DNA from: Candidatus Helarchaeota archaeon
GTDB lineage: Archaea > Asgardarchaeota > Lokiarchaeia > Helarchaeales > RDOG01
Reading direction: 5' to 3'
DNA length: 64,000 nt
NCBI GenBank assembly: GCA_019058315.1
Contig: JAHPZH010000002.1
Coordinates: 941,910-1,005,909 of the forward strand
Of this stretch, positions 5,198-23,575 are shown piece by piece (position 1 is the stretch's first letter; the number at the start of each line of letters is the position of its first letter). The notes beneath the pieces are model-generated. The model ran no database searches and was not told where the DNA came from. It saw only the letters and a list, made by a program, of their open reading frames with translations. The position numbers and the translations under genes were made by a program.

Positions 5198-5875
5198 TTA
5201 ATCTGATCGATTCATTTTTTTTATTTTTTCCAAAAAATATTCATCAACAACTTTTAATTTAGGTCGTTGATATTTTTCACTTAATTCAATTATAATTTCA
5301 TTATAATCAATAATAAACTCTCTCACGCCTTTCATAAACTTAAAGTAACTTTTTGGTGTAATTTTCTTCCCTTCTTGTTTTTCTTTACTTTTAAGCTCTC
5401 TAAAGATTTCTTTTCTGATAATACTATCCCACAAAGGAAAAAAATCGGGAACTAATAGATGGAGAAATTTTCCTGTAGCTGTCGATGCAAGGATACCATT
5501 GAAGATTTCAAAATGTTTATTAATCTGTTTTTTCCATTTATTATCATTTAAATCAGTATTTTCTATCTTTAAAGATTGATATTTGATTAAATCCTTACAA
5601 TGCTCTTTAACTGATTCAATTATGTCATAAGTCCAACTCTTCCTTTTTTCTGTATTAAGAACTCTTCCCATATTTCCCCAAATTAACAAATATGTCCGTA
5701 TTGGACCTTTTATATCACTTTCATCAATTTCACATAAATTAATCTTTTTTGTAAATTGAAGACAATTATTATAGATTATATCTGTAGCAAATTTCCATTC
5801 ATGTTCATGGTTTTTTACTAGATCCTCAATTTCTTTTTGGGCAGGTTTTAAGATTGAACTGTTTCTATCAGTCAA
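5198..5875 (-). CDS. Hypothetical protein, possible HhH/DNA-glycosylase-like fold
   Basis: 225-aa ORF; TATGKFLHLLVPDFFPLWDS and a late VVDEY resemble HhH-like families (inference). Confidence 0.5.
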   Translation of the reverse strand: MTDRNSSILKPAQKEIEDLVKNHEHEWKFATDIIYNNCLQFTKKINLCEIDESDIKGPIRTYLLIWGNMGRVLNTEKRKSWTYDIIESVKEHCKDLIKYQSLKIENTDLNDNKWKKQINKHFEIFNGILASTATGKFLHLLVPDFFPLWDSIIRKEIFRELKSKEKQEGKKITPKSYFKFMKGVREFIIDYNEIIIELSEKYQRPKLKVVDEYFLEKIKKMNRSD

Positions 5876-5991
5876 ATATAATCTCTCAAAATACTCAATT
5901 ATTCGTTAAAAATATTTGTAATAAATAGTCAAAAATATTTTTAATAAAGTTCTTTTTATTTTTTAAATTTAAATGATTTATGAGTGGAATA

Positions 5992-6004
5992 TAACTGCGA
6001 TTAT
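5992..6004 (+). repeat. Right half (TAACTGCGATTAT) of the 28-bp array site; leftmost site
   Basis: Exact match to the right arm of the full copies; left arm and core differ (GAGTGGAATA). Confidence 0.65.
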
Positions 6005-6174
6005 GAGACACTAAGAAAATACAGAAACTAAAAAAAAGAAATTTGGTTTATAGAATCTTTAAAACGAGGGGAATTTCTATTTCTCAACAATAAAGAAGAT
6101 TCTAATTTAAAAACTTTTAAATAATTTTTCTTAAAAATACAATTAATTCCTTTTTTAAAAAGAAGGTTAAAAAT

Positions 6175-6714
6175 ATGAATAAAGCAGGAGCAGCAGCAGT
6201 AATTTTTTTCCTGTTAGCTGCTGGAGCCATCGGCTATATAGCCTATGAAACGATGCAACCTACTCCTATAGACCCAGGTACTGCGTTATATATATACGAG
6301 AAAATTTTTCCGCCACCTCCACAAAGAAATACTTGGTACACAAAATATGACAGTTATAAATATACAAATCCAGCCTTAACTAACATACTTTTCAGTGAAT
6401 TACGAATAGAATTTGAAATTAGACCTGGAGAACATGTATTATTTAGTTTTTCGACACAAATTTTTCTTCCTTCTGGTGGACCCTTTACGGCAGCTGCCTT
6501 TTTCGTTGTTGATGGAATTGATAAAGAAGCTGGTTATCCATCTTGCGGTGTTGCAATGGATACATCAGATGGTGCGAGTATTCAAAGTTGCTCAATGTTA
6601 ATGGCCCTTTCCTTATCTCCGGGAACACACAACGTTACAGTTAAGATTATTGGGACTGACACAGGAATAAGATTTTCTGACACTAGTATGGCAGTCCAAA
6701 CTTATACAACTTAA
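6175..6714 (+). CDS. N-terminally anchored or secreted beta-sandwich protein
   Basis: Hydrophobic N-terminus, Pro-rich linker, LSPGTHNVTV; similar to 41230..41772. Confidence 0.7.
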   Translation: MNKAGAAAVIFFLLAAGAIGYIAYETMQPTPIDPGTALYIYEKIFPPPPQRNTWYTKYDSYKYTNPALTNILFSELRIEFEIRPGEHVLFSFSTQIFLPSGGPFTAAAFFVVDGIDKEAGYPSCGVAMDTSDGASIQSCSMLMALSLSPGTHNVTVKIIGTDTGIRFSDTSMAVQTYTT

Positions 6715-6745
6715 TTTTTTTTTATTAAATCTGAAAAAATGATTT

Positions 6746-6773
6746 ATACCCAATTTCAGACTTAACTGCGATT
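6746..6773 (+). repeat. 28-bp putative recombination site, copy 1
   Basis: ATACCCAATTTCAGACTTAACTGCGATT (consensus). Confidence 0.9.
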
Positions 6774-6937
6774 TTGAAAAATTGAAATTTAGAAGTTTCT
6801 CATTTTATGTAGTGATTTATAATTATTTTTTAACCTGTTATTGGTGAAGGGATGTTCAGAGAAACTTTATTGCCACAAGTTTAAATTTATATTAAATAAT
6901 TATGAGATCTAAATCAGTATATTAGGAGATATAAATC

Positions 6938-7879
6938 TTGGAATTTAAAGAAGCAAAAAAGATAGAAGCAGAAAAGATAGAAAAAAATTTTAGAAATGGT
7001 CCATTTCAAGAGTATAAAGATAAATGTAAGGATATTAAAGGAGAGTTTTCAATTGATGATGCGGGATTTGAGATTTTTCAGGGCCCAATTCTAAATTATA
7101 ATCCAATTATGATAATTGGTTTTAATCCCGGATATGGGAAGAAGGCAGGACCGGCTCAAAAAAACTTAGAACATAGAATATATTATAATATCCACTCTAT
7201 TTATGACACATTTTTAGAAAAGAGAATAAAAGGAGATTATACATATTTTGCTAGAAATCTAAGGAGATATTTTTGTTTTATTTTTCTAAATGAAGAACAA
7301 GCTAATTATAAACACACTTGTATTAATAGGCAATATTTGAAGGAGCGGAAAAGTCATGAAATTGATTCTTCTGCTCAATTTATGGATTATTGTATGAGCT
7401 GCCCACCTGTGGTTCAAAGTAGAAAATGGTTTAAATTAGAAAAAAATGAAATTTCCATACCATTTAAAATATTAGCAAGTGTTTTTGCTACTAACTTGAT
7501 TTTTTTTAAATCACCTGTTGAAGAGAGGCTCCATAATTTAGAGCTTGCCCTTCAATTAAGTCGCTCTATATTAATTGAATTAATAAATAAAGCAAACCCT
7601 AAACTAATAATAACATTCGGAAACGAAGTAGAAGATGAATTAGAGAAATTGCAAAAGGAGAAAAAAATTCGTGAAGACATCAAAATTTGTAGGTTGAATA
7701 ATCCTTCAACAGATAGAAGTGGAGAACTTACAGAACCAGATAACATCGAAAGACTTAAAAAATTGAGAAACTTCATCAAAGAACAGATCCAGAAATCTAG
7801 CGAATTTAGGCAAGAAATAGACTTCATTCTTTATAAAAATAAATTAGAGAAATTAGAGGAATTATTAAAAGTTAGTTGA
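6938..7879 (+). CDS. Uracil-DNA glycosylase superfamily-like protein
   Basis: IMIIGFNPG, TNLIFFKS, PKLIITFG and LNNPS (HPS-like) motifs in UDG order. Confidence 0.55.
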   Translation: MEFKEAKKIEAEKIEKNFRNGPFQEYKDKCKDIKGEFSIDDAGFEIFQGPILNYNPIMIIGFNPGYGKKAGPAQKNLEHRIYYNIHSIYDTFLEKRIKGDYTYFARNLRRYFCFIFLNEEQANYKHTCINRQYLKERKSHEIDSSAQFMDYCMSCPPVVQSRKWFKLEKNEISIPFKILASVFATNLIFFKSPVEERLHNLELALQLSRSILIELINKANPKLIITFGNEVEDELEKLQKEKKIREDIKICRLNNPSTDRSGELTEPDNIERLKKLRNFIKEQIQKSSEFRQEIDFILYKNKLEKLEELLKVS

Positions 7880-7944
7880 CTTACTTAGCAATAAGTAGTC
7901 TTAAAATAAAAAGAGAAGGAAATTATTTTTGTATTTTAGATAAA

Positions 7945-8083
7945 AAAAAATTGCACAAATTAAGCTCTAACTCAAAGTAAAAAGTTGAGCTTGTCAGATT
8001 ATAAATAATTAAATGAAGAACTGGATATTTTAACTGAGAAATTCAAAGATGTTTATAAAAAGGTAAAGGGAAATAAGATAAGT
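7945..8083 (+). pseudogene. Decayed helical-hairpin coding remnant, in frame with the downstream GTPase
   Basis: ALTQSKKLSLSDYK*LNEELDILTEKFKDV (stop at 8006-8008) aligns with the tail of 44737..45396 (SLLKEKSLKLEDYQHLKKELDDLSEKL). Confidence 0.5.
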
Positions 8084-8734
8084 GTGAAGTTAAAATATAA
8101 AATAGCGTTGGTCGGAGATCCTAAAGTAGGAAAGAGTAACCTCCTTAATAGATATATTGACGGAATCTTTAACCCTCCCCCTTCACGAATAGGGGTAAAA
8201 TTTTATCAAAAGACTGTTCAAATTCCAGGAACAAATGAGGAGGCTCGATTTTTATTCTGGGAAATGATTAACAGAAGATTTCAAGGGATAATCGAGCAGC
8301 ATTTCAAGAGCACGAGTGGAGTCATATTAATTTTCGATACTACAAGAAGGGAAACATTTGATAACCTCACTTATTGGCATGATGAAATCAAAGGGCGCAT
8401 CAAAAATGTTGTTCCCGGGATTTTAATTGGGGCTAAAATGGATCTCGTGGACCAAAGAGTGGTATCAACTAAAGAAGCGCAAGAATATGCAGATAAAATT
8501 AAATATGCATACATTGAAACTTCTGCAAAAACAAATCATAACGTTACCAAAGCTTTTAATTTTATGATTAGGGAGCTTCTAATTCCTGAAAAAGCCAAGA
8601 TCGATGAACTTATTAATAAGATAAAGAAAATAGAGAAAGATGGATTAAAATTTACAGAAGAATTCAAAATATTAAAAAAAATTAAAGAATTAAAAAAATT
8701 TAAAGAAGGATTAAATAAGTTGTATGAAGATTAA
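8084..8734 (+). CDS. Rab-like small GTPase with degenerate G3 and C-terminal helical tail
   Basis: G1 GDPKVGKS, IGVKFYQK, G3 FWEMIN, G4 GAKMD, G5 ETSAK. Confidence 0.9.
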   Translation: MKLKYKIALVGDPKVGKSNLLNRYIDGIFNPPPSRIGVKFYQKTVQIPGTNEEARFLFWEMINRRFQGIIEQHFKSTSGVILIFDTTRRETFDNLTYWHDEIKGRIKNVVPGILIGAKMDLVDQRVVSTKEAQEYADKIKYAYIETSAKTNHNVTKAFNFMIRELLIPEKAKIDELINKIKKIEKDGLKFTEEFKILKKIKELKKFKEGLNKLYED

Positions 8735-8870
8735 AAAAAAATTTAGCTTGCATCATAGAACTAACAATTAATTTATACTTTTTTATGCCGTATTATATTG
8801 CAGGAGTTGTAGCAGATAATTTTAAGAAAATATCTGCTGAATTAAGAAAAGAATTGCTATTATGATAATT

Positions 8871-8898
8871 ATACCCAATTTCAGATTTAACTGCGATT
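8871..8898 (+). repeat. 28-bp putative recombination site, copy 2
   Basis: ATACCCAATTTCAGATTTAACTGCGATT (1 mismatch); between convergent genes. Confidence 0.9.
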
Positions 8899-8918
8899 AT
8901 GTTACAAGATGGATAAAC

Positions 8919-11900
8919 TTATATGTTAAGGAAAATTTCATTAACTAAATTTTCGGTATCTTTAAAAATACCCACATTTCCAGCGAATTTCTCTAAATCA
9001 ACCTCAAATTCTTTTTCAAATTTTAATAACATCTCCTTTTGCCTCTCTATGATTAATTTGTTTGGCAATCCTGAGGTAATGAGTGCGATCACTGTATATT
9101 TTCCGTCTTGAATGCCTATTTCGAAATGTTGGTATGATAATTTTTGCATCCCTGTTTCTTTGGCTTCCGCACCTAATTCCATACCAAAACTTCGAATTGC
9201 TGTCAGAAATCCACCAATTAAATCAGAATCTAAGGCGGTTTCAGCGAAATTATAGTTATACATGTTCACTCCGCTTGATTTATTAATCAACATCAAAGCA
9301 AATAAGATCATTCTAGCATATTGTTCATTCATTTTATTTAATTGCCCTCTTAACTGGTTATTTCCTGTTTGGATATTTCTTTTTGTTTGCTCATCTGCTC
9401 CTGGAGATTCAAAATAATTTTTAGTATTACTCTCTAAAAGAATGATTATAGCGTCCATGCAAGTCAATATATCATATTGTAAATTTAGATATGTACGATT
9501 CCAAATTTCATCTTCTGTAATCTTTTCTAGATCAGCAATCCACTTATTAAATATCTCTGTAAATATTTTTGTGACTTGTAAATCAGGAAAATACGAATTT
9601 GATTTTATATGTAATTCTTTTAAAATCAGTAAAATATTATCAATTGGTGCTTTTTCTATACATAAATTATTCAATTCCGAAAGTCTTTGAGTAAATTCGA
9701 ATGCATTATAAACCTTGCTGGTTATTACATCCATGGTAGTAGAGATTTTTCTGGAATATTTAATTGCTAGATTAATAAGATTCTTAATATAGGCTAAAAA
9801 TCCGGTAGCTTGTTTTATATCTTCTAAATAAATATCAATTACAATATAGTCTTGTATTATAATAAGCTCAATAATTATGAGATCTCCACCAACCTTAGCC
9901 ACCCCTGAATATGTAATATGGAATTTTTCCTCTTCTTCTTCTACCTTTGTTACATCTAAAGATGAGATTTGCTCTTTTGCTATTCGATATGCATTAGGTT
10001 TAGTCAAACCTTCAAAATTTATTTCACTATGACTTCTCTGGAGTGTCTGCATTAAGGAAATTAAATTCGATGAACTAAGTTTTTTAGGTTGGACAAGGGG
10101 ACATTTAATTTGAACAACATTTGGGGTAATTTCCATAGAAATTAACTCACTTTTAGCTGTTTTGTAACTTACTTTTCCATGAATTCGTGATTTTCCACAA
10201 GTTAATGGGGTTAAGATGAAATCTGTTCCTATTGATTCTCCTGGTTCCAAGATATCAATAGTATTTATTGGTGTATCTATTTCATATTGCTGTTTTTTAA
10301 TTTCCAATGAAACTAAAATATCTCTTATTATTCTATCAGAGGTGTTTTCGACAACTATTTTATACCTAATAGCTCCTCCGACATAATCATAAGCTCTTCT
10401 TATTACAAGATCTTCTTTTAATATTTTAATAGGTTTTTTGGTTGGTTGAATAACCTTGATTTCTCCTTTTTGTTTCCTAGCTGCGTAAAGAACTATCGCA
10501 ACGATAACAACTGAGCCAATCATTATAATTAGAATAATGATAAAAATAATATCACTCTCAGGAAAGAAAAAAAGAGGTAATGATTTCGGAGGGTCGGATC
10601 TAGGAGGCTCATCTTCTGAAACTAACTCTATATAAGCCGAACTCTCTATATATATTATTTCCCAATCACTTCCCCACTCGCCATTTGTATCATCATCCCA
10701 TACTACATGAATATTTCCATTTTCATCTGTAATAATGCAAGGATTCTTACTATCTCCATCATTCCATCCAATAAAATCCGAAATGCAAGTGGCATTAGAC
10801 CACCCTGCAGTTGTATAATTTATATACATAATTTCCCAGTCAGTTCCCCACTCTCCAGTTGTCCAATCCTGCCAAACGACATGAATGTTATCGTCATTAT
10901 CCGCAGCGATGCTTGGATAATTGCTCTCATTGTTATTCCAACCATATATATCTGAAATACAAGATACATTCGACCAACCCATAGATGTATAATTAGCATA
11001 CATAATTTCAGTGTCCGTCCCCCATTCACCATTTGTATCATCCTGCCAAACAACATGTAAATTTCCGTCAACATCTGTGATAATTCTGGAAAAATTACTA
11101 TAAGCATCATTCCAATCCCATATTCCTCCATATCCATCTGAAATTACGGTTACATTTGACCAACCTTTCGCAGTATAATTCACATACATTATTTCTTGAT
11201 CTATTCCCCATTGACCATTTGTTTCATCCTGCCAAACTACATGAATATTACCATTATTATCAATTGCGATCGAAGGATCTGAACTCTCGCCAGTATTCCA
11301 CCCCCAAACTCCCCCATATCCATCTGAAATCACAGTTGCATTCGACCAACCCTCAGCAGCTGTATAATTCGCATACATGATCTCAATATCAGATCCCCAC
11401 TCCCCAATTGTCCAATCATCCCAAGTCACATGAATATTACCGTTATCATCAACGGCAATACTAGAGTGATAACTATTACCATCATTCCATCCGGTGTAAT
11501 CGTCCGAAATTACCGTTGCATTTGACCAACCTTCAGCTGTATAATTAGCATACATAATTTCAACATCTGTTCCCCAAGCACCTACAGTTTCATCGTGCCA
11601 AACAACGTGGACATTTCCAAATTTGTCCGTAGTGATGCTCGGTTCACAACTAGCTTTATCATTCCATCCTAAATAATCATCAGAAATGATGGTCACGTTT
11701 GACCAGCCTGTAGTCATAGTATAATTAACATACATAATTTCTGAATCAGTTCCCCAAGATCCATTCGTATTATCTTGCCAGACGACGTGAATAATGCCAT
11801 TACTATCTGCGGCAACGCTTGAACAACAGCTAGTACCACTGTTCCAACCCCAAAACTCTTTATAACCATCCGAAATTACGGTTGCACTTTTCCATGTGTT

Positions 11901-13385
11901 AGTTAAATTATTTCTTATCCGTTGTATATAAATATCGTAATCTGAATTTCTATAATCATTCCAGCTTACTATTGCTCCTCCCATTTGGTCGCTAACAATA
12001 CTTGGAGCATAAAGGGAAACTCGTTCAGTACATACTGGAATTCCATCAGCTGTGAAATTGACTTGTCCTTCTCCATTAACTTGTTGTAAAAAAATAGATG
12101 TGTTAGTATATCTCTGATCTCCCCAAGTAATAAAAGCTCCCCCATTTTGGTCTGAACAGATTCGAGGGTAAAATTGAGTTGAACTCTCATTACAAATCAA
12201 AATCCCATTTGTAGTCCAATTTATTGTCCCAGTGGAATTTATACGTTGTGCATAGATATCAAAATCACCAAATCTATTATCATACCAACAAATAATAGCC
12301 CCTTCATAACTATCATCACAAATTCTAGGAGAATATTGGCTATTTCCATAACTACATATAAGAGTTCCATTATTATTCCATTTTATATAACCCGTTGAAT
12401 TAATTTTTTGTGTATAAATATCCTTAATCGAATCTCTAAAATCAAGCCAACTGAATATTGCACCTCCATTTTTATCGCTGCATATGTCAACACTGTATTG
12501 ATCTTCAAATTCTGTACAAATTTCCACTCCATTATCTTTCCATAACATAAATCCACTAGAATTAATCCTCTGGGCATATAAATCTTTGCCAGCTACAAGC
12601 CCATTTCTATTATCTTCCCAGACAATAATTGCTCCCCCATCCCCATCTTCGACTATTTTAGGAAGAGCATGATAACTAATATTACATATCGCAGTGCCAT
12701 TGTCAAGCCATTGAGTATATCCGCTGGAATTAATTCTTTGCGCATAAATGCCAGGGGGTCCATCTCTCTCATCTGCCCAAGTTATGATGGCACCTCCCTC
12801 TCCATCGCTACAAATAGAAGGTATCTGCTGGTGTAAAGCTAGGTTACAAATAGGAGTCCCATTTGGTATCCATTGAATATTACCCCTTGAATCAATCTTT
12901 TGTGCATAAATATCGTCACTTCCTGTCCTATTATCTTGCCATGTAATAATTGCACCTCTATTGCCATCACTGACGATTTTAGGGAGGCTCTGATATGCAT
13001 CTGAAGTACATATTGGTTTTCCATCAAGTGTCCATAAAAGAACTCCTCCCGCACTTATTCTCTGAGCATAAATATTGGAATCTGAGGCACTAACTCTATC
13101 ATCCCGCCAAGTAACTATTGCTCCTCCTACTCCATCTGGACATAGAGCGGAATCCATTTGATTATTAATTTCAGTGCAAATAGGCGTTCCGTTATTATAC
13201 CACTTTATTTTATATATTGTTGAAAGAAATTCCAATTTTTTATCATTTGGAATAGAAATACCGTTTTTACCAGGATTATAAATTGGTAAGGGTGAATTTA
13301 CTGATGAAATAAATAAAAAGAACGGGATAAATACCAAAATTATTAAAATAAAAAAATACCACTTTGGGAGATCTTTTTTTTTCAT
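8919..13385 (-). CDS. Large single-pass membrane protein: extracellular beta-propeller repeats, TM, Ig/appendage-like domain, C-terminal longin-like domain
   Basis: Signal/TM N-terminus; repeats DGxGGAIxxWxDxR...DIYAQRI; second repeat class PSIAxDxxGNIHVVWQD; TM IIFIIILIIMIGSVVIVAIVLY; C-terminal SGVNMY...DSDLIGGFLTAIRSFG...FEKEF. Confidence 0.85.
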   Translation of the reverse strand: MKKKDLPKWYFFILIILVFIPFFLFISSVNSPLPIYNPGKNGISIPNDKKLEFLSTIYKIKWYNNGTPICTEINNQMDSALCPDGVGGAIVTWRDDRVSASDSNIYAQRISAGGVLLWTLDGKPICTSDAYQSLPKIVSDGNRGAIITWQDNRTGSDDIYAQKIDSRGNIQWIPNGTPICNLALHQQIPSICSDGEGGAIITWADERDGPPGIYAQRINSSGYTQWLDNGTAICNISYHALPKIVEDGDGGAIIVWEDNRNGLVAGKDLYAQRINSSGFMLWKDNGVEICTEFEDQYSVDICSDKNGGAIFSWLDFRDSIKDIYTQKINSTGYIKWNNNGTLICSYGNSQYSPRICDDSYEGAIICWYDNRFGDFDIYAQRINSTGTINWTTNGILICNESSTQFYPRICSDQNGGAFITWGDQRYTNTSIFLQQVNGEGQVNFTADGIPVCTERVSLYAPSIVSDQMGGAIVSWNDYRNSDYDIYIQRIRNNLTNTWKSATVISDGYKEFWGWNSGTSCCSSVAADSNGIIHVVWQDNTNGSWGTDSEIMYVNYTMTTGWSNVTIISDDYLGWNDKASCEPSITTDKFGNVHVVWHDETVGAWGTDVEIMYANYTAEGWSNATVISDDYTGWNDGNSYHSSIAVDDNGNIHVTWDDWTIGEWGSDIEIMYANYTAAEGWSNATVISDGYGGVWGWNTGESSDPSIAIDNNGNIHVVWQDETNGQWGIDQEIMYVNYTAKGWSNVTVISDGYGGIWDWNDAYSNFSRIITDVDGNLHVVWQDDTNGEWGTDTEIMYANYTSMGWSNVSCISDIYGWNNNESNYPSIAADNDDNIHVVWQDWTTGEWGTDWEIMYINYTTAGWSNATCISDFIGWNDGDSKNPCIITDENGNIHVVWDDDTNGEWGSDWEIIYIESSAYIELVSEDEPPRSDPPKSLPLFFFPESDIIFIIILIIMIGSVVIVAIVLYAARKQKGEIKVIQPTKKPIKILKEDLVIRRAYDYVGGAIRYKIVVENTSDRIIRDILVSLEIKKQQYEIDTPINTIDILEPGESIGTDFILTPLTCGKSRIHGKVSYKTAKSELISMEITPNVVQIKCPLVQPKKLSSSNLISLMQTLQRSHSEINFEGLTKPNAYRIAKEQISSLDVTKVEEEEEKFHITYSGVAKVGGDLIIIELIIIQDYIVIDIYLEDIKQATGFLAYIKNLINLAIKYSRKISTTMDVITSKVYNAFEFTQRLSELNNLCIEKAPIDNILLILKELHIKSNSYFPDLQVTKIFTEIFNKWIADLEKITEDEIWNRTYLNLQYDILTCMDAIIILLESNTKNYFESPGADEQTKRNIQTGNNQLRGQLNKMNEQYARMILFALMLINKSSGVNMYNYNFAETALDSDLIGGFLTAIRSFGMELGAEAKETGMQKLSYQHFEIGIQDGKYTVIALITSGLPNKLIIERQKEMLLKFEKEFEVDLEKFAGNVGIFKDTENLVNEIFLNI

Positions 13386-13648
13386 TATAATTCACTAAAA
13401 TTTTTAAATTTTTATGTTAAAATTACTAATTACTACGAATTAATGTCATTTGAAATGAATATATTTTTTAAAAATCACATACAATAAGAATATATATTTG
13501 ATTTTAGAGGTAAGTCAATTTTTTCTAAACTCTTTTCTATTTGTCAAAGTCTCCTTTTTTTTCTATTTCTTCCATAATTATTACCTCAAATTATGGAATA
13601 TTGACTTCTTTAAAACTAATCTTTTCCTTTTTTACCTAAAGAATTGCA

Positions 13649-14138
13649 GAATGCCCCTGCCTTCAGCGGGGGATGCAAGCAACAACGAAGTCAAAATTAT
13701 TTTAGTTATCAATTAGTCTTTAGTGGTTTAAATAGATTGAACAAGCTAGAGTAGGTGATGAAGAAATATAGGGCAATCAAGGTAAGGTTGTATCCCAATA
13801 GAGAAGAGAGAGCATTATTAGATCAGACCTTTGGCTGTTGTCGATTCATCTATAATAAGATGTTGGAGGAGAGGATTAGGGTGTATAAGGAGTTAAAGGA
13901 GGATAAGGATACTCTTTATGCCCATAAATATAAAACAGAGAGGGAGTATAAAGGACAGTTTCCGTTTTTAAAGGATGTTGATGCAAAAGCATTGCAATCT
14001 GAGTGGAGACATCTAAAATCAGCCTATGACAATTTCTTCAGGAATTTTAAGAAGGGTATAAAGAAGGGGTTTCCGAGATTTAAGTCTAAGAAGTCTAAGC
14101 AGTCCTATACAACATTTAATAGTAATAACAACTTGTAA
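13649..14138 (+). mobile_element. IS200/IS605-family remnant: left-end hairpin plus 5' part of tnpB
   Basis: GC-rich hairpin CCCCTGC-CTTCA-GCGGGGG at 13654-13672, upstream of a truncated tnpB; no right end or tnpA seen. Confidence 0.75.
13755..14138 (+). pseudogene. tnpB: Truncated TnpB (N-terminal 127 aa; RuvC and Zn ribbon missing)
   Basis: AIKVRLYPN..LDQTFGCCRFIYNKML..FPFLKDVDAKALQ..AYDNFF..GFPRFKSKK..QSYTT, then stop. Confidence 0.88.
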
Positions 14139-14139
14139 A

Positions 14140-14379
14140 ATGGACATCAATGATAATAGCATCGATATAATCATATGTTTCGATGTGTTTCATGCCTTCG
14201 GAGCGAAAGAAGAAAGTATCTTAAAAGAATTTAGCCGAGTATTAAACAAAAATGGGTTTTTGTTAATAAATGACCATCATTACAAAGAGGATGAACTAGT
14301 ATCTAAAGTTTTGAGCCATAAAATCTTTGCTTTGAAAAGGAAAAAAGAAGACTTTTATTTTTTTTTAACTAATGACTAA
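14140..14379 (+). pseudogene. C-terminal fragment of a class I SAM methyltransferase
   Basis: DNSIDIIICFDVFH..LKEFSRVLNKNGFLLI; the GxGxG motif I half is absent; abuts the truncated tnpB. Confidence 0.7.
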
Positions 14380-14458
14380 TATGGACAATACATCGTTGCT
14401 GGAAAGCGAAAAGAAATATTGTAATTCTGAATTATTGTGTGTCTATAGAATTAATTCT

Positions 14459-14486
14459 ATACCCAATTTCAGACTTAACTGCGATT
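14459..14486 (+). repeat. 28-bp putative recombination site, copy 3
   Basis: Exact consensus. Confidence 0.9.
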
Positions 14487-14603
14487 AGATTAATTTAAAA
14501 GACCTATCTTAAAAATATTAACTTATTATAAAAAATATTTTACTTGAAGTTGATATAAAGATAAGAGATAACAAAGAATTTTAGAATTTATGAAGGTGAT
14601 GTT

Positions 14604-15707
14604 ATGATCCCTCTTTTCCCGATAAACTCGATATTTATGGTTTTGGGGCTCATCTCAGTCTTTTCATCAGCAATTGCTGCAATTTTAACCTTGCATCAAT
14701 TTATGTTGACTAAAAATCGTTTAAATCTTTATACCTCATTAGGATGGATATTTTGGCTATTTTTTCTTTTAACCTTTACATTATCTGGTTATTTTTCAAT
14801 TTTCAACCAAGATATTGCGATTATTTTAATGCAAATAAGTATGACTATATCTGTTGCTATAACATTTAGTATGACATTAGCCTTTGATACCATGTCCCGG
14901 GAATCTGCAGATCCCATTAAATTAATCATAATTTCTTTTGTTTCCGCAGCACTTATCATATTTAGTATGACTCCGGGTTCATTGCATTATGAATTTTCTT
15001 CTGGGGTAATATTTTTTTATTGTAATGAGGTATTTATTTTATCATTTTTTATTTTAATGGGGTTTTTATCTTATATACACATTTTTTATAATGCAAAAAT
15101 TCTTTGGGTTGCTCCTAATAACTTAAAATTTCCAGCATTCATGGAGCTCCTAGGTGTGATATTCCTTGCACCAGGGGCATTAATAACACTAGTACTTGGC
15201 ACTAATTTAATTATTTCTGGGATTTCTTTTTTATTTATAGGGTTAGGTACTCTCCCGGTTGCGATAGTATTTGCTAAGTATTCGAAACTGTCCTACATAC
15301 TTCCTTTCAAGGCTTTACGTTTAACGATCATCGAGACTAATAGTGGAATTGCAATCTTCAATCATGTGTGGAATAAATTGGATGATTTGGTGGATGAGCA
15401 GCTTTTTTCAGGCATGTTGCAGGCTATATCTCAAATTTTAAATGAATCTCTTAAAAGGGGAAACGTACAAGAGATAAGGATGGATCGAGCCGTCTTATTC
15501 GTGAAAAGGCTCCCTTCCAATCCCATAGCATGTATTCTGGCTTCCACAAAATCGTCGAGTTCTCTTCAACATGCTTTGGATTCTTTTTCCGATCACTTCA
15601 GCAAAGATTTTGCTCTTTTTTTTGATAATCCACACATGATAGATAACTTCGATAGTGCCAAAAAACTTGTGGAGATCTATTTTCCATTCATCCCTGAGTA
15701 TGATTGA
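14604..15707 (+). CDS. 7TM membrane protein with C-terminal longin-like domain
   Basis: About 7 hydrophobic segments, then SGIAIFNHVW..DEQLFSGMLQAISQ..F..DF; paralog of 19012..20100. Confidence 0.8.
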   Translation: MIPLFPINSIFMVLGLISVFSSAIAAILTLHQFMLTKNRLNLYTSLGWIFWLFFLLTFTLSGYFSIFNQDIAIILMQISMTISVAITFSMTLAFDTMSRESADPIKLIIISFVSAALIIFSMTPGSLHYEFSSGVIFFYCNEVFILSFFILMGFLSYIHIFYNAKILWVAPNNLKFPAFMELLGVIFLAPGALITLVLGTNLIISGISFLFIGLGTLPVAIVFAKYSKLSYILPFKALRLTIIETNSGIAIFNHVWNKLDDLVDEQLFSGMLQAISQILNESLKRGNVQEIRMDRAVLFVKRLPSNPIACILASTKSSSSLQHALDSFSDHFSKDFALFFDNPHMIDNFDSAKKLVEIYFPFIPEYD

Positions 15708-15720
15708 GATTTGTATTATT

Positions 15721-15748
15721 ATATCTAATTTCAGACTTAACTGCGATT
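15721..15748 (+). repeat. 28-bp putative recombination site, copy 4
   Basis: ATATCTAATTTCAGACTTAACTGCGATT (2 mismatches). Confidence 0.88.
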
Positions 15749-16115
15749 ATAAGACTATGAATATTAAAAAAAGGGATAATTATAAGATTATTTTCGTTTT
15801 TTAATCAAAAATATTGTTTTTATAACTGCTACTATGAATGTCTAAAAAATTTCTATTCTAATAAAAAAAAAGATAAAATTTTGAAGGGTATTATCGCTTT
15901 TTAAGATAAATAAAAATTCCGACTGCTACTCTAATTCCTATTTTAGTTTTCTCAACGATATGATTGGGGCTAATTACATATCTTTATAAATAGGAGTAAT
16001 ACTCATTTTTTATAAGTGATTACAATTGTTTCGTATTACTAGAAGAAACGTCTTAACTGTAGTCATGATATTGATTCATAAGGAGATAAGCTGAAATACG
16101 TAGAGGTGATAATTA

Positions 16116-16790
16116 ATGAGCAAAATATTAGATTTTTGGATGAAAATTTGGTTATACATAATGGCTGCTGGTGGCATATTATTAATCGTACTGGTGGTTG
16201 TATTTTGGAATCAGTTTGATTTGGCAACCCTTTTGGTGTATTTTACTTGGATAGGTCTAGTGCTCCACGTGATGGAGGAATGGCGTTTTCCTGGGGGCTT
16301 CCATTATATCTATAATCTCATGAAAAAATCAGAAAACACAGATCGTTATCCCATGAACAGGGTATCTGACATGTTAACTAATTTCGGGGCTTTAATATTT
16401 GGCTTTGGGAGCATCATCATCGGTGTAAACCCCATAATAGCAATTTCTTTGTTCCTTTTTTGTGGCGTCGAAGTTCTAGCTCATACTGGCATCGGAATTT
16501 ATTCGAACAAATTACTCAATACCCAAGGAAAGAAAATTATCTACAATCCAGGGTTTCTAACAAGCTATCTAGTATTTTTACCTGTCTCAATTGGGTTCAT
16601 TTACATTTTTGCAACAGGAATATTACAAACAGTTTTTACTGATTGGTTGTTGGGTCTGGTTTTGATTGGCGGTATAGGATTTCTTTTAATTTTCCTCCCA
16701 GAAAGGATGTTACGAAACAAAAACTCGCCTTATCCCTTCACCGGGAAATATGAATTTGGATATTATAAGAAATTTATTGAGTTTAAATGA
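16116..16790 (+). CDS. HXXEE-domain membrane protein
   Basis: LHVMEEWRFPGGF and YNPGFLTS motifs; multiple TM segments. Confidence 0.85.
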   Translation: MSKILDFWMKIWLYIMAAGGILLIVLVVVFWNQFDLATLLVYFTWIGLVLHVMEEWRFPGGFHYIYNLMKKSENTDRYPMNRVSDMLTNFGALIFGFGSIIIGVNPIIAISLFLFCGVEVLAHTGIGIYSNKLLNTQGKKIIYNPGFLTSYLVFLPVSIGFIYIFATGILQTVFTDWLLGLVLIGGIGFLLIFLPERMLRNKNSPYPFTGKYEFGYYKKFIEFK

Positions 16791-16889
16791 ATATGGATTA
16801 TTATCAATTTCGATTTTTTTAACTCAATTACCAATATATCAATATTTTAAATTTAATGCTGTATATACTACTTCATCCCCAAAAAAAAG

Positions 16890-17633
16890 ATGAAAAACAT
16901 GAATTCAGATGAATCATTTATTTATTTAATATCGCATACTCAATCTATAATTTTGATAGCTTTAGTTGTATGCTTACTTTTTATAAGCATTAAAACTAAA
17001 TTGACTCATGTGGACAAATTTAGACAAAATTTTGTAGCTGGAATTTTTATTTATTTTGCCTCTGCAATGACTGTAATAATACTGTCAATTTGGCTTCTAT
17101 ATATTCTTCCTGAACCAATTTATAACTTGTTGGATATTTCTACAATAATAGGTGTAATTATAGCATATTTTTTAATCATTCGCGGACTTTTTATATTAAA
17201 TAGCTATCTTTCTTCATTAATCGATTATAATGAGCAGAATTATAAGAGAATTTCTATAATTATTGCTTTTCTTGCATCAGGAACTATCTTTATTACAAAT
17301 TTAATTATTTTAAAATTTGATCCTGCAAATATGGGGCTCATAATTCCTTTTTTCGGTCTGGGTATAGGGCAATTTTTTATATTCATCTATTGCTTCTTTT
17401 TACACAGAGAAATAAAAGTTCTTAAGATTAATATGATGGCTTACTTCGGGACAGGTTTTATGTTCCTTACTGTTCACCTTTCCCTCTCAACTTTATATAA
17501 TCTCGGAATAATTCCATATATAATTTGGTTTAGTATAATACTTGGTTTATGTAACAATTTAATGATTATCTTCTTAATTCTTGGTTACTTGAATTTTAAA
17601 AACCGAATAGACAAGATTAGCAGTGCTAATTGA
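16890..17633 (+). CDS. Multi-pass (about 7 TM) membrane protein
   Basis: 247-aa hydrophobic ORF. Confidence 0.7.
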   Translation: MKNMNSDESFIYLISHTQSIILIALVVCLLFISIKTKLTHVDKFRQNFVAGIFIYFASAMTVIILSIWLLYILPEPIYNLLDISTIIGVIIAYFLIIRGLFILNSYLSSLIDYNEQNYKRISIIIAFLASGTIFITNLIILKFDPANMGLIIPFFGLGIGQFFIFIYCFFLHREIKVLKINMMAYFGTGFMFLTVHLSLSTLYNLGIIPYIIWFSIILGLCNNLMIIFLILGYLNFKNRIDKISSAN

Positions 17634-17642
17634 AATTGATAG

Positions 17643-17807
17643 AGTGAGAACTTTCTAGATTTATTATTTTCTCCAATTGGGATAGTAATGATTGTAGGAA
17701 TTGTGGAAGCAATCATAGTAATTATGTTATTAATTAAGAACAATAGAAACCTAAATGAACGTTTACAAAAAGTCGAAAGACAAATTTCTGCTAAGAAAAC
17801 ATTTTGA
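17643..17807 (+). pseudogene. Orphan C-terminal membrane anchor of a surface protein
   Basis: SENFLDLLFSPIGIVMIVGIVEAIIVIMLLIKNNR...KKTF*; resembles FLDKLFDP+TM of 55996..57894; N-terminal part absent. Confidence 0.5.
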
Positions 17808-17962
17808 TTTTCTCTCACATGAAAAGCGAAATGATCCAACTAGATAACTTCTGTACGGAATATCTCATGGTAATTTGACATAAAAAATATAAATTTATTA
17901 AAATCACTGAAAAACAATAAAACCCTAAGTTCTAATATAAAAATTTTAATAATATAGCAAAA

Positions 17963-18931
17963 TTAGTCCATATTTTGTTCCATTTTCTGTTTAATTTCTT
18001 CTAGGGTTGTAATAGCGTCTTTAAATTGAGGGTCAATAGCGAGAGCCATATTAAGAAATTTAATAGCTTCTTGAAATTTTTTAAGACTTGAAAATACGAG
18101 TCCCAGAGCATACCACGCATTTTTATTTTTTGGATTTATTTCAACTGCTTTCTTATAACATTCTAATTCTTTTTGATAATTTCCTAAACAGGCATATCCA
18201 ACTCCTAAAAAATACCAAGACTCACTATCTTGAGGGAGAATATTGACTTTTTCTTTAAAACATTCCAAGGCTTTTTGATAATTACCTAGCTTTCCGTAAG
18301 CGAGTCCCATATTATGCCAAGCATCATTATCTTTAGGTGTAATTGCCACAGCTTTTTCGTAATTTTCAACTGCTTTTTGATAATTAGCAAGTTGAAAATA
18401 AGTAAATCCCAGATTATAAAATGCATCACTATATTCAGGATTAATTTCTACTGCTTTCTCATAGTATTCTATAGCTTTTTGATATTTTTCTAAATTTCCG
18501 TACTCCTTACCCATGTCGTACCAAGCTTTACTATTTTGAGGATTAATTCCTACTGCTTTTTCATAACATTCTATAGCTTTTTGATAATTTCCTAATTTAC
18601 CATATGCTAATCCCATGAAATGCCAAGCCCCATCGTCTTGAGGGTCTATTTTTACCACTTTTTCATAACAATTAATTGCTTTATGATGATTTCCCATATC
18701 ATAAAATGTGACACCCATATTGAACCATGCATCAATATATTGAGGATCAACACCAATAGCTTTTTCGTAATGTTCAATAGCCTTTAAATAATTTCCTAAA
18801 TTATAATATGCAAGCCCCATGATATACCATACAACACGATCTTGCTGGTCTATTTTGATTACTTTCTGGTAATATTCAATTCCTTTCAAAAATTCTCCGT
18901 TCTTAATTGATGTACGCCCCTTGTTTTTCAA
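17963..18931 (-). CDS. Tetratricopeptide-repeat protein
   Basis: About nine 34-aa TPRs (W..MG.AY..LGNY.KAIE.YEKAV.I.P). Frame extends to an ACG at 18967 after an SD-like AGGTAA. Confidence 0.92.
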   Translation of the reverse strand: MKNKGRTSIKNGEFLKGIEYYQKVIKIDQQDRVVWYIMGLAYYNLGNYLKAIEHYEKAIGVDPQYIDAWFNMGVTFYDMGNHHKAINCYEKVVKIDPQDDGAWHFMGLAYGKLGNYQKAIECYEKAVGINPQNSKAWYDMGKEYGNLEKYQKAIEYYEKAVEINPEYSDAFYNLGFTYFQLANYQKAVENYEKAVAITPKDNDAWHNMGLAYGKLGNYQKALECFKEKVNILPQDSESWYFLGVGYACLGNYQKELECYKKAVEINPKNKNAWYALGLVFSSLKKFQEAIKFLNMALAIDPQFKDAITTLEEIKQKMEQNMD

Positions 18932-19011
18932 TTCTAATAAAAGATCTACAGTGTTTTCTTTCGACGTTTTGATTACCTATTTTTCTTTAGAAACTAAAAA
19001 TAAATAATGAT

Positions 19012-20100
19012 TTAGTAATATGGAATGAACGGGAAACATTCATCAATAACCTTAGGAGTGTCTTTAAAAAGATTAACATCAGCTGTTTTTTGAAACTGGT
19101 CAATTTCGTTGCGATATTTTTTTGTAAAGACGTCTGCAAACAAATTGAGTGCTGATCTAAGTGATGCGCTAGATTTTGTAGCAAGCAAAACGAATACGAC
19201 ATGCAAGCGATCGGATTGTTTTAAAATCACTAAGCTCTCCTCAAGTTGTATTTCTTTTATGTTTCCTTTTTGTATAGTTTCTTTTACAAAATGACCCAAA
19301 GCTGAAATCATACCTGAAAAGAGATTTTCGTCGATTAAGAAATCTTTTTTATTCCATATATGGTCATATAGCGGGATGCTTTTATCTCGTTCGATTATGA
19401 CTAATCTAGATGCTTTAAACGGCAACAAGAATCCTAATTTCGGCTGCTTAGCGTAAACCACACCCATTAATAACGTTCCAATGGCAAAAAATATATCACT
19501 AAATGCAGGAATGGACTGGTTTATCTTCAAAGCGGTAACCAGGGGTGCCATTATCTGCTGGAATAAAATCCCAACATTTGCTAAATAAATCCAATTTTTT
19601 AATTCTTCTGGAGCATTACGCCAAAATTTAATTCCAAGATATATGACTGAAACCATGATGATTAAAACAAGTCCTAAGATAACGGATAAAAGCGTATCTT
19701 GAATGAAAATTGAGGGGTCTCCATTCGGATAAAGAAACTGGTAATAATATCTTAAATCGAAACAAAGAAAAAGCAACACTGCAGAAAGGAAGGAAATTAA
19801 CATCATTTTTCCCGTTTCGACAGATTCCCTGGTCATTACATCATAAAGTAAAGCGACGCTAAATGTTATTGGTATCCAAAGAATTACACTAAGAATTGCA
19901 TAAGTGAATGAGAAAAACAAAATTGCTAATCCTTTCGATACCTCCCATGATGTTAAAGAAAGGTAAGTTAAGGCACAGATGAAAAAATGTTTGTATCTTA
20001 ATCTAAAATATTGATAAAATAGAAAAATGGTGCCAAATGCTCCTGGAGCTGCACTGATAAAATAAATCATAACCTCTATTGTAAAAACCATAATAACCAT
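19012..20100 (-). CDS. 7TM membrane protein with C-terminal longin-like domain
   Basis: Paralog of 14604..15707 (shared D.M.RES, LPFKA.RL, DE.LFSGM, FPFIP). Confidence 0.8.
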   Translation of the reverse strand: MVIMVFTIEVMIYFISAAPGAFGTIFLFYQYFRLRYKHFFICALTYLSLTSWEVSKGLAILFFSFTYAILSVILWIPITFSVALLYDVMTRESVETGKMMLISFLSAVLLFLCFDLRYYYQFLYPNGDPSIFIQDTLLSVILGLVLIIMVSVIYLGIKFWRNAPEELKNWIYLANVGILFQQIMAPLVTALKINQSIPAFSDIFFAIGTLLMGVVYAKQPKLGFLLPFKASRLVIIERDKSIPLYDHIWNKKDFLIDENLFSGMISALGHFVKETIQKGNIKEIQLEESLVILKQSDRLHVVFVLLATKSSASLRSALNLFADVFTKKYRNEIDQFQKTADVNLFKDTPKVIDECFPFIPYY

Positions 20101-20193
20101 CTACTCAATTATAAGATTTCTTTTAATGCAAGATTTTTTAAATTTTCCATAACTTATAAAGCAATTAATTAATGAATATTCTTCAAAAAAGAG

Positions 20194-20817
20194 TTGAAAT
20201 TTGTGATAAAAAATCAAAAAATAATAGGAATTTGCGGAATGATTGCTCCAGTGATATTTAACTTGATATGGATTATCGGGGGTTTCATACAGCCCGGATA
20301 TAGTCATATTCGCGACGATGTAAGCACACTTATGGCATCGGGAGCACCGAACAAACTTTTATTCGATATTATGCATATTGCTGAATTAATTTTAATAATA
20401 ATATTTTTAATTGGCTTACTTCAAGTAATGAGAGATTTAGGAAACTCGTTTGTTGCTCCAATTTTATTTTTAATTTCACAGAGCATGGAACTTACTGTTA
20501 CAATATTTTTCCCTTTAGATTATGGTGGTGAGATTACCACATTAATTGGAACCATGCATTTTATACTTGTAGTGATACTTGGTTTCATTGCAATGGGTGG
20601 CATGTTTACAATGTGGTTTGAATTAAAGAAGGTAGACGAATGGAAGGGATATGATGTTTATTCGCTGATAACATTCATTTGTACTTTAACTCTTGGGCTT
20701 TTCTTATCAATGACTGCAGGAAGCGAAATAATGGGATTAATTGAAAGGTTCGTAATTGTTGCTAACGGACAATATTTCTTTGTAATAGCGTTAAAGGTTT
20801 ATCTTACAAGTGAATGA
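20194..20817 (+). CDS. DUF998-family membrane protein
   Basis: PGYSHIRDDVSTLMASGAP, FFPLD, TMH, GLIERF. Confidence 0.8.
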   Translation: MKFVIKNQKIIGICGMIAPVIFNLIWIIGGFIQPGYSHIRDDVSTLMASGAPNKLLFDIMHIAELILIIIFLIGLLQVMRDLGNSFVAPILFLISQSMELTVTIFFPLDYGGEITTLIGTMHFILVVILGFIAMGGMFTMWFELKKVDEWKGYDVYSLITFICTLTLGLFLSMTAGSEIMGLIERFVIVANGQYFFVIALKVYLTSE

Positions 20818-20912
20818 AATTAAATTTTATAAATCCCAATATATAATTAAGTTCAACTTTATTAACTAATTTAAATAATATACTTATTTAAACCAAAAAA
20901 GAGGGTATTTGG

Positions 20913-21629
20913 ATGTTATTTCGCAAGCTTGATGAAGATCGTGATCAAAAAATTGACGACTCAAAGCAATATCTTAAAAAGATACGAAATGATCTTGAAA
21001 TTTTAAAAAAGACAGACACTGGCATAGATTTTGATAATGTTGGAAAAAAACTTGATGCAATAAGTAAAATTATTGAGAAATTGCCTGAAAAAATTCCCAA
21101 GATAGAAATCACATCCAAATATATTAAAGAAATTTTCCAACTTCTAGAAATGTCCAACCAAAGCAATATTGCTTTATTAGTTGATATTGAAACTAAATTG
21201 GTAATTATGGGGTCTAGAATCCACTTGGTGGGTGTTCTTCAAAAAATAATTAAAAATCCTGATCGAAGGAGTATAGCACCTAGGGGAAAAATTTGGAAAA
21301 ATATTAAAGCATGTTTTCCTAGGTTCAAAGGTTTTAATGTGACCGTCTGGGGTGGTGGTGGATACATGACAAAAGCTGAAAGTTTTTCCGTTAAGTTAGA
21401 CGATTTTAAATATAAAAATGAAAAAACAGATTCTAAACTAACATCAAATCAAGCCCGTGAATCAGCTTTTAAAGAATTAATAAGTCTTGTAAGATCATTC
21501 CTCTCGTGGGAAATAGAGAAATATAGGGTGGACGAATATCTCAGGACTTGGACTTTTGATAAGGATTTAATAGTTAAGTTTCAATTCGATTGGCGTTCCT
21601 ATGAGGAACGATATGATCCAACAAGATAA
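20913..21629 (+). CDS. Hypothetical protein
   Basis: 238-aa ORF with an N-terminal coiled region. Confidence 0.65.
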   Translation: MLFRKLDEDRDQKIDDSKQYLKKIRNDLEILKKTDTGIDFDNVGKKLDAISKIIEKLPEKIPKIEITSKYIKEIFQLLEMSNQSNIALLVDIETKLVIMGSRIHLVGVLQKIIKNPDRRSIAPRGKIWKNIKACFPRFKGFNVTVWGGGGYMTKAESFSVKLDDFKYKNEKTDSKLTSNQARESAFKELISLVRSFLSWEIEKYRVDEYLRTWTFDKDLIVKFQFDWRSYEERYDPTR

Positions 21630-21693
21630 CTTTCATAGAAAATTTTGATAAAATCGTAATAATGGTAAGAAGAAAATGTTTTAAATTTATTGT

Positions 21694-21720
21694 CTACCCA
21701 ATCTCAAACTTACTGCGATT
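21694..21720 (+). repeat. 28-bp putative recombination site, copy 5 (degenerate)
   Basis: CTACCCAATCTCAAACTTA-CTGCGATT (3 mismatches, 1 gap). Confidence 0.8.
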
Positions 21721-21821
21721 ATAATAATTCTGTAGCATACTCATATTTTACTATTTTTGGTAGACAAAAATAAACGCTTTGATTATATGAATAAATTAAT
21801 AATAAATATTCTACTAAAATA

Positions 21822-22076
21822 ATGAATAACACATTTAGGTTTCAAAAGGAGTTGAATAAATTTAGTAAAATATCTGAAGATAAAGCTGTTAAATTAGCTA
21901 AAAAAGCGCTTTCGGAGAAAGGGTGGGATATTGAGAAATACATAATGAAAAAAGAAGAGTCTGATGAGAAATGGATAATCACTTTCGAAGGTAAAGAACC
22001 CCGACCTCCTGGAGATGAAATGACTATTTATGTTATTAAAAAAGATGGATCCATTAAGGTATTTATTGGAGAATAA
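21822..22076 (+). CDS. Small hypothetical protein (PepSY-like or immunity-protein-like alpha/beta)
   Basis: ISEDKAVKLAKKAL..KWIITF..PPGD..IYVIKKDGSI; family assignment is inference. Confidence 0.55.
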   Translation: MNNTFRFQKELNKFSKISEDKAVKLAKKALSEKGWDIEKYIMKKEESDEKWIITFEGKEPRPPGDEMTIYVIKKDGSIKVFIGE

Positions 22077-22198
22077 GAGAATTTTAAATTCTTAATTCCA
22101 ATTTCCTATAATAATTTTGCAGCAAATATCCATTTTTTGACTTCTTCGTGAGAGATATGATATAATAAGATAACCTGTAAAAATTTTAGTGGTAAATA

Positions 22199-23467: not shown

Positions 23468-23485
23468 ATGATCTAAAACTATTCT

Positions 23486-23513
23486 GTTGCCAATTTCAGA
23501 TTTAATTGCATTT
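23486..23513 (+). repeat. 28-bp putative recombination site, copy 6 (degenerate)
   Basis: GTTGCCAATTTCAGATTTAATTGCATTT (7 mismatches); between convergent genes. Confidence 0.7.
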
Positions 23514-23575
23514 ATAGAACATTATTTTTTAATACTAAAAACTAAAAAGCTTAAAAAAAGGAAAAAAATTGAAGA

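Follow-up and report, generated by a model that had tools for sequence, protein, structure and literature searches.

A 22-kb stretch of contig C5 of this genome (5.8 Mb, ~30% G + C) is split by seven sites of 32 nt, together with a truncated copy at its left end, into unrelated gene modules. It is a repeat-bounded cassette array without a linked integrase. We give about even chances to the explanation that these repeats are the recombination junctions of independently acquired modules, with the responsible enzyme acting in trans or since lost. The window, i.e. the whole 64,000-nt stretch that was analysed (C5:941910-1005909), begins at its left end with chemotaxis genes, namely those for CheR, CheB, a histidine kinase and a convergent MCP; from 5971 rightward (positions without a contig name are those of the window) follows a row of one repeated sequence. 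The original prediction of a seven-copy array held throughout, and all of its coordinates were found again, including the 11 nt shared by 5971-5981 and 6737-6747 and the 13 nt at 5992-6004. A search of the window for a tRNA, a tmRNA or an Rfam family as integration target gave no result, and there is no GC-skew turning point at the locus.

The consensus of the site is TTATACCCAATTTCAGACTTAACTGCGATTAT, in which 19 nt form the left part, TTATACCCAATTTCAGACT, and 13 nt the right part, TAACTGCGATTAT, referred to below as O. The seven copies, all on the plus strand, lie between 6744 and 27665. Copies 1 (6744-6775) and 2 (8869-8900, between convergent genes) agree with the consensus at 31 of the 32 positions, and copies 3 (14457-14488) and 4 (15719-15750) at 30 of the 32. 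Copy 5 (21693-21722) has a 1-nt deletion and about four substitutions, while copies 6 (23484-23515) and 7 (27634-27665) retain 24/32 and 23/32 positions, the latter with a contiguous core match of 16 nt. Copies 2, 6 and 7 have T where the other copies have C, within AGA(C/T)TTAA. When the copies were aligned with their flanks, conservation ended abruptly at the limits of the 32 nt, and the flanks and cargo around the seven sites are mutually unrelated.

The site is unique to this locus within the genome. No further full copy was found in the 5.8 Mb by blastn-short, an exhaustive mismatch scan or nhmmer, which excludes a dispersed genome-wide repeat or regulatory motif. Among the 11.6 million genome positions of the mismatch scan, copy 6 alone reaches 24/32, and copy 7 shares its 23/32 with seven other positions. 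In addition, a profile was trained on copies 1-4 and a metagenome copy (described below), with copies 5-7 left out; these three were its top non-training matches in the genome (E 0.03, 0.21 and 0.45 for copies 5, 6 and 7), all on the plus strand and less than 12 kb to the right of copy 4. The genome has four exact copies of the 13-mer O, all on the plus strand of C5: at 5992-6004, in copies 2 and 4, and at a site 41.8 kb upstream. The 11-mer TAACTGCGATT has about five background matches genome-wide, so that a chance match on the correct strand less than 2 kb from the array would have a probability of ~1e-3.

Two inverted sequences were also noted. An exact inverted copy of the central 12-mer, TTTCAGATTTAA, lies on the minus strand at 6725-6736, 7 nt before copy 1 and 17 nt before the 12-mer of copy 1 itself; its positional significance is ~1e-3, and one other exact minus-strand copy in the window (2261) indicates how often the 12-mer arises by chance. 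At 47031-47043 on the minus strand, within the ORF 46650-47336, TAACTGCGATTAG is preceded by CAATTT and reads like the full site minus CAGACT. This O-like 13-mer was rejected as a site of the array, as it is inside an ORF and fits the approximately five genome-wide background matches of the 11-mer.

The distribution of the site bears on the hypothesis that the 32-mer is a functional cis-element (a protein-binding site, part of a promoter or terminator, or an anchor for homologous recombination) that is kept by selection or gene conversion in one variable region. All seven copies are intergenic and co-oriented, the left edge of the site bears a TATA-like TTATA, and gene conversion could homogenise the four good copies. 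However, neither the other 5.7 Mb of the genome nor 399 genomes of the phylum contain the sequence, the next gene lies anywhere between 18 and 365 nt away, with convergent or divergent neighbours in two cases, and the sequence has neither an RNA or DNA structure nor an Rfam match. Moreover, a cis-element accounts neither for the break point shared by the partial sites nor for the copy in unrelated DNA, both of which are presented below. We consider this hypothesis very doubtful.

From left to right, modules 1 to 7 measure 739, 2093, 5556, 1230, 5942, 1761 and 4118 nt. Module 1 (6005-6743, plus strand) consists of one intact gene (6175-6714) for an orphan membrane or secreted protein of 179 aa, for which no relatives were found among 5.8 billion proteins. 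Module 2 (6776-8868, plus strand) carries a 313-aa gene without an assigned family and a gene for a Ras-family GTPase (8084-8734), and module 3 (8901-14456, mixed strands) a 1488-aa repeat protein on the minus strand, a truncated TnpB/IS remnant (~13629-14138) and a C-terminal fragment of a methyltransferase (14140-14379). Module 4 (14489-15718, plus strand) holds a single 367-aa gene (14604-15707) that ends 11 nt before copy 4. Six genes are found in module 5 (15751-21692, both strands), for HXXEE, TPR and DUF998 proteins and others without a family. Module 6 (21723-23483, plus strand) comprises an 84-aa ORF and a gene for an LRR protein (22199-23467), and module 7 (23516-27633, minus strand) three genes, for a 504-aa protein, a TPR protein and an Oxidored_q6-type protein.

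Several observations on individual genes are worth recording. The Ras-family GTPase gene with 87 nt upstream (7997-8689) is 83% identical at the nucleotide level to C5:333193-333911, and the similarity ends 45 nt before the stop codon, pointing to a recent intragenomic duplication in which the 3' end was replaced. The stretch 13629-14379 comprises a truncated IS, of which the left end and the N-terminal HTH of TnpB are present, ~79% identical to copies on contigs C3 and C6; the TnpB remnant is fused straight to the C-terminal fragment of the SAM methyltransferase, and both dead pieces lie just before copy 3. The 504-aa ORF (23576-25090) has no family match and contains an internal tandem duplication of ~606 nt (23727-24947) with halves that are 74% identical. 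The Oxidored_q6 (hydrogenase small-subunit-like) gene (26130-27560, 476 aa) has a paralogue at C5:1145664-1147085 (83% amino acid and 77% nucleotide identity) and a third copy on C3. ATGAT motifs before some of the sites were considered as parts of a C/D-box sRNA and dismissed; by inspection, they are stop codons or site flanks, with no D box.

Six of the seven sites lie 11-134 nt beyond the end of a plus-strand ORF, and the small modules contain one or two plus-strand genes, which supports recombination junctions. Every module has an upstream region of 100-370 nt. Modules 1 and 4 each consist cleanly of a single gene, and the site follows 11-29 nt past its stop codon. In gene orientation and site position, modules 1, 2, 4 and 6 are cassette-like; modules 3, 5 and 7 are 4-6 kb long and of mixed strand, and could perhaps be ordinary chromosome. 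The latter point counts against recombination junctions, as does a cargo of cellular-type paralogue families (Ras, LRR, TPR) instead of classic mobile-element genes. On the other hand, the gene fragments and the IS remnant support recombination junctions, since they are expected of a patchwork of acquired DNA.

The quality of the sites declines along the array. Counted against the 32-nt consensus, mismatches run 1, 1, 2, 2, ~5, 8 and 9 from left to right, and the rank trend of decay with position has a rho of 0.98 (permutation p 0.0016). A left-to-right decay had been predicted from counts of 0, 1, 0, 2, 4, 7 and 6, and with those counts the same trend persists (rho 0.90, p 0.0095). The gradient is really one of two tiers, four near-perfect left copies and three decayed right copies; for the grouping of four good and three decayed copies at one end each, p is 0.057. 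The observation that the left copies are near-identical and the right ones unlike one another was likewise confirmed, and as the differences of the right copies from the consensus fall at different positions, these copies decayed independently. From the order of decay, the left tier appears to be the younger one. Entry of new modules at the left end, as originally proposed, is a possibility that would be consistent with the data from this one genome.

The left end of the array is formed by a partial site. As predicted, the half-site keeps only the right arm: positions 5992-6004 (plus strand) are exactly the right 13 nt of the repeat, TAACTGCGATTAT, i.e. the part from TAAC rightward. On its left lies AAATGATTTAT (5971-5981, plus strand). 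The same 11 nt lead into copy 1 (6737-6747), and a similar sequence, ATGATAATTAT, precedes copy 2. Genome-wide there are 55 copies of this 11-mer, and a copy less than 30 nt from copy 1 would arise by chance with a probability of ~1e-4. Between AAATGATTTAT and O, the 10 nt GAGTGGAATA (5982-5991, plus strand) stand in place of the 15 nt ACCCAATTTCAGACT of the full sites. The partial site retains both outer edges of a full site of the copy-1/2 type, with the central 15 nt swapped for 10 unrelated nt, and thus may equally be a rearranged full site.

Two further sequences resemble this partial site. The second partial site (15821-15849, plus strand) contains O and the right flank without a left arm, and it begins 73 nt past copy 4, at the border of the near-perfect and decayed tiers. 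It matches 5990-6018 at 22 of 29 positions, a level reached at just four positions of the genome, and a local alignment of the two partial-site regions scored 99 against 71.9 +/- 8.7 (maximum 97) for 200 shuffles, a post hoc comparison in AT-rich DNA. The right flank of copy 4 also resembles that of 5992-6004, over 29 nt. A third, less certain partial site (C5:906097-906120, same strand) is intergenic and lies 41.8 kb to the left, outside the window and beyond an island of defence genes and chemotaxis genes. The 16-mer ATATAACTGCGATTAT recurs once, at C5:906105, with TGAG eight nt upstream, and the far site shares TGAG-N4-ATA with the region of 5982-5991. It is the best match in the genome to the partial-site 24-mer, at 20/24; in this post hoc comparison in AT-rich DNA such a match is expected ~0.3 times genome-wide by chance, so that the far site is convincing by position alone.

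In all three partial sites, the similarity starts at TAAC, and the two nucleotides just upstream are TA, in place of the CT or TT of full sites. The strongest internal evidence for an exchange at the 5' edge of TAAC is this shared break. The original prediction had tentatively placed the crossover at the core/right-arm boundary on the basis of the left-end site, and it gains from the two further partial sites (15821-15849 and C5:906097-906120), which break at the same point and fit an exchange at or next to this edge. If strand exchange occurred there, a junction with non-site DNA would keep O only, as at 5992-6004, at 15821-15849 and possibly at C5:906108.

An alternative hypothesis is that the locus is an active integron-like platform for gene capture, in which 5992-6004 would be a dedicated entry site served by a recombinase in trans and module age would rise from left to right. 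The gradient of site quality with a partial site at the well-preserved end, the clean single-gene units of modules 1 and 4, and the alike right flanks of 5992-6004 and copy 4 all fit this hypothesis, and the partial site at 15821-15849 opens the decayed tier as if there were one entry site per tier. The recurring break point and the TGAG-N4-ATA likeness to the far site would favour a distinct class of entry-type sites. However, there are two or three partial sites instead of one, and the left-end site, with both outer edges of a full site, may simply be a damaged one; it is therefore doubtful as an attI, to which the original prediction had likened it, and does not represent a unique class of sites. 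No integrase lies by the supposed entry site, and the polarity, taken as two tiers, has the p of 0.057 given above. The proposed likeness to an integron attI is also at odds with the sites forming no hairpin, and the likeness to a CRISPR leader with the leftmost copy being partial, not a whole duplicated repeat. We regard a capture platform of this kind as unlikely.

The gene beside the left-end partial site (5198-5875, minus strand) is divergent from the array and occupies the place where an intI would be expected. Its product had no match in Pfam, PHROG or NCBIfam, and the possibility of a hidden integrase was rejected because the protein is DUF6308-like by its relatives, with 193 representatives, mostly of ~200-230 aa. 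The closest relative, MFX1453270.1, is 79% identical and comes from a 2,993-nt contig of a Promethearchaeota MAG.

Farther to the left, C5:906216-922000 is a low-GC (0.265) island 24-36 kb left of the window start that carries defence-type genes, encoding a DpnII/MboI-like nuclease, an N6/N4 DNA methylase, a 990-aa cytidine-deaminase-TPR protein, PLD, nucleotidyltransferase, HNH and HEPN proteins. These are followed by genes for a protein-kinase-helicase fusion of more than 1,000 aa and an AAA_15 ATPase, by ordinary-looking genes and by the chemotaxis cluster. The G + C content between the far partial site and the window is 0.265-0.29, and this stretch is a defence-type variable region. The presence of such an island to the left of the array supports recombination junctions. 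Beside the chemotaxis genes of the nearest genome compared, which belongs to the same family and has a CheB 54% identical, the array is absent; in the relatives compared, homologues of the flanking genes are at most 54% identical.

Outside this genome, an exact-word scan of JGI metagenomes yielded one true copy of the site, on the archaeal metagenome contig Ga0209742_10004066 (L023; 5.4 kb, 33% G + C). It agrees with the consensus at 30 of 32 positions and, of all copies in the array, is closest to copy 3 (40/43 with flanks). The site lies between convergent ORFs, downstream of a TYW3 gene. The rest of the contig has no DNA similarity to the genome, save for a 161-nt stretch that is 71% identical to a gene on C3, and a search with its TYW3 at E 1e-10 found no match in this genome and 20 relatives. 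Adjoining the O side of the site are 50 codons homologous to the N-terminus of a protein of this genome with 236 aa (71% nucleotide identity), possibly a truncated gene. As the site is found on L023 in unrelated DNA, it moves independently of its surroundings.

The site was found neither in a first scan of 40 other genomes of the phylum nor in 399 of them scanned at up to three mismatches in 26 nt. A scan of the GTDB species collection gave a chance match only, and in IMG/VR, searched as a source of a viral or plasmid attP, the matches end at the query word. The absence from 399 genomes of the phylum shows that this is not a conserved housekeeping site such as dif; being rare, not conserved in the lineage and present in two unrelated contexts, it behaves as a mobile recombination site. 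The comparison is based on one genome and one outside copy, and that the known outside copies number one counts against recombination junctions.

Structure and enzyme complement were also analysed. Four sites were folded as single-stranded DNA, both by themselves and together with 105 nt downstream; the z-scores were -0.76 to +1.11, and no stem was shared. An attC-like or RNA structure was rejected, as the folds are no better than those of shuffled sequences and conservation is confined to 32 unstructured nt; forming no hairpin, the site is not attC-like. A dyad of 8-6-8, AATTTCAG / ACTTAA / CTGCGATT, pairs 6/8 arm positions (6/11 if extended), no more than expected by chance in AT-rich DNA. 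The 63-kb region contains no gene for a recombinase, a transposase or Cas1. In the genome, searches for a serine recombinase, an HUH/Y1 transposase and an rve integrase found none, and the only two PF00589 tyrosine recombinases, at C5:822820 (125 kb away) and on contig C7 (268.8 kb), are divergent and Xer-like, with 70 and 37 bits against the XerA cut-off of 220 bits. The weak, insignificant dyad, the 63 kb without a recombinase, the lack of the other enzyme classes in the genome and the low scores of both tyrosine recombinases all count against recombination junctions.

These data also bear on the hypothesis that the site is a chromosome dimer-resolution site of the Xer/dif type and that the array is a stack of IMEX-like elements exploiting it. 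The weak 8-6-8 dyad would suit such a site, the only recombinases of the genome are Xer-like, and arrays of IMEX are polar and leave hybrid partial sites. Nevertheless, the site occurs in none of 399 related genomes, and both recombinases score far under the XerA cut-off. By criteria for archaeal dif architecture drawn from PMC2958812, we rejected an identity with dif on account of the lack of conservation in relatives, of a skew turning point and of statistical support for the dyad. We consider this hypothesis extremely improbable.

A further hypothesis holds that the 32-mer forms the end of a transposon-like element (one-ended, rolling-circle or end-targeting) which copied or captured adjacent DNA and so produced head-to-tail units. 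Gene fragments lie just before some of the sites, and the truncated homologue of the 236-aa gene abuts the site on L023; AAATGATTTAT is present on both sides of module 1, like a target duplication, the inverted 12-mer lies beside copy 1, and module 3 contains the TnpB remnant. Against this, neither the six TnpB loci nor other parts of the genome carry the site, its copies are clustered and not dispersed as those of a transposon would be, and there is no conserved opposite end, terminal inverted repeat or hairpin. Neither an HUH/Y1 transposase nor an rve integrase was found in the genome. The more specific possibility that the 32-mer is the end of the TnpB elements of this genome was rejected, given its absence from the six loci, the lack of a Y1 transposase and the lack of a hairpin. 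Overall, a transposon end appears very unlikely.

The Cas1-like domains of the genome reside in giant ORFs on other contigs, with none on C5 near the array. At three loci (C6:303094-308380, C11:722542-727508 and C11:836306-841251), a TnpB gene lies ~4 kb from a weak Cas1-domain match in a giant frame of 2,100-2,600 aa, and two further giant frames with a Cas1-like domain are present on C7 and C1. The combination of TnpB and giant Cas1-like frames resembles a large element present several times, whose giant protein includes a fused Cas1-like domain. Aloposons of Heimdallarchaeum integrate at tRNA genes and carry giant genes (PMC8813620), and for these reasons they are not comparable to the array.

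Returning to the explanation by recombination junctions, we propose that modules were joined serially at a single chromosomal locus, leaving att-type sites at the junctions. Strand exchange would take place at or beside the 5' edge of TAAC; between modules it would leave a full site made of left arm and O, and where a site met non-site DNA, an O-only hybrid. The four left sites would be young or still in use, and the three right sites would be old and have decayed independently. The recombinase would have come from outside the locus, either acting in trans or encoded on a mobile element since lost, and the outcome would be an integrase-less array, intermediate in layout between the cassette array of an integron and decayed integrative elements in a tandem row. 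The same-strand sites within 22 kb, their sharp edges, the unrelated cargo, the shared TAAC break and the copy on L023 support this explanation. The anatomy, the confinement to this locus, the gradient, the shared break and the occurrence in unrelated DNA are observations, from which recombination as the cause, the crossover position, the order of age and the direction of growth are inferred.

If the sites are indeed recombination junctions, they would reveal a route by which the archaeal lineage closest to eukaryotes gains genes as modules. Such a mechanism would act on the paralogue families (small GTPases, LRR, TPR and longin-type proteins) whose expansion marks these genomes, and it would extend the known cassette systems by a variant with unstructured sites and an integrase in trans. 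For the two host tyrosine recombinases, the shared break directly 5' of TAAC defines a concrete recombination substrate. If the array is a fossil, it would be an ordinary scar of past integrations. A more far-reaching hypothesis, which we consider quite unlikely, is that the Asgard archaea (Promethearchaeota) possess a working gene-capture platform of a new type, built on short 32-nt sites without structure, on a partial site dedicated to entry and on a recombinase whose gene lies elsewhere, through which single genes, including those of eukaryote-signature families (Ras-like GTPase, longin-type, LRR, TPR), would be stacked and exchanged between lineages.

The array shares features with several known systems. 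CRISPR and casposon (Cas1) arrays are also polar, in that new units join at one end while the repeats at the other decay, whereas here there is no Cas1 in the region, the end copy is partial and the units are of kilobase size with genes. In IMEX at dif and in the pdif modules of Acinetobacter plasmids, modules are likewise bounded by short (28-32 nt) recombinase sites whose host enzyme is encoded elsewhere, and stacks of IMEX are polar. However, pdif sites alternate in orientation while those of the array are all direct, and, unlike the sites of Xer-dependent modules, the site described here is not conserved in relatives, is weakly palindromic and lies off the skew turning point.

A further comparison is with the cassette arrays of integrons, above all integrase-less clusters (CALINs) and sedentary chromosomal integrons. 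In these systems, too, co-oriented modules of one to a few genes are each closely followed by one type of site, the cargo is unrelated and partly orphan, a differing partial site is present at one end, and a polarity is plausible. Heptamers like RYYYAAC/GTTRRRY are also found in the site, as ACTTAAC and, on the opposite strand, GTTAAGT. In contrast, IntI lies beside the array in integrons, and no recombinase is nearby here; attC forms an R''-L''/L'-R' hairpin, whereas the 32 nt are unstructured (fold z ~0). In addition, conservation here extends to both sides of the inferred crossover, modules have their own upstream regions of 100-370 nt, and some are multi-gene on both strands. Thus, the layout is integron- or CALIN-like, yet it lacks two defining characters, IntI and the attC hairpin.

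Tandem integrative elements, CIMEs and island scars at one attB provide the other comparison. The array differs from tandem integrative elements in that it is not targeted to a tRNA, a tmRNA or the 3' end of a gene and in that its units are as small as 0.74-1.2 kb, with no integrase, replication or capsid genes left. Like the array, these systems show direct att repeats of a few tens of nt with hybrid or partial sites at the ends, their older units decay, their integrase-less units need a recombinase in trans, and the same att is found in different hosts. The att repeats expected of tandem elements are present here as seven direct copies, accompanied by partial sites that share the right 13 nt only.
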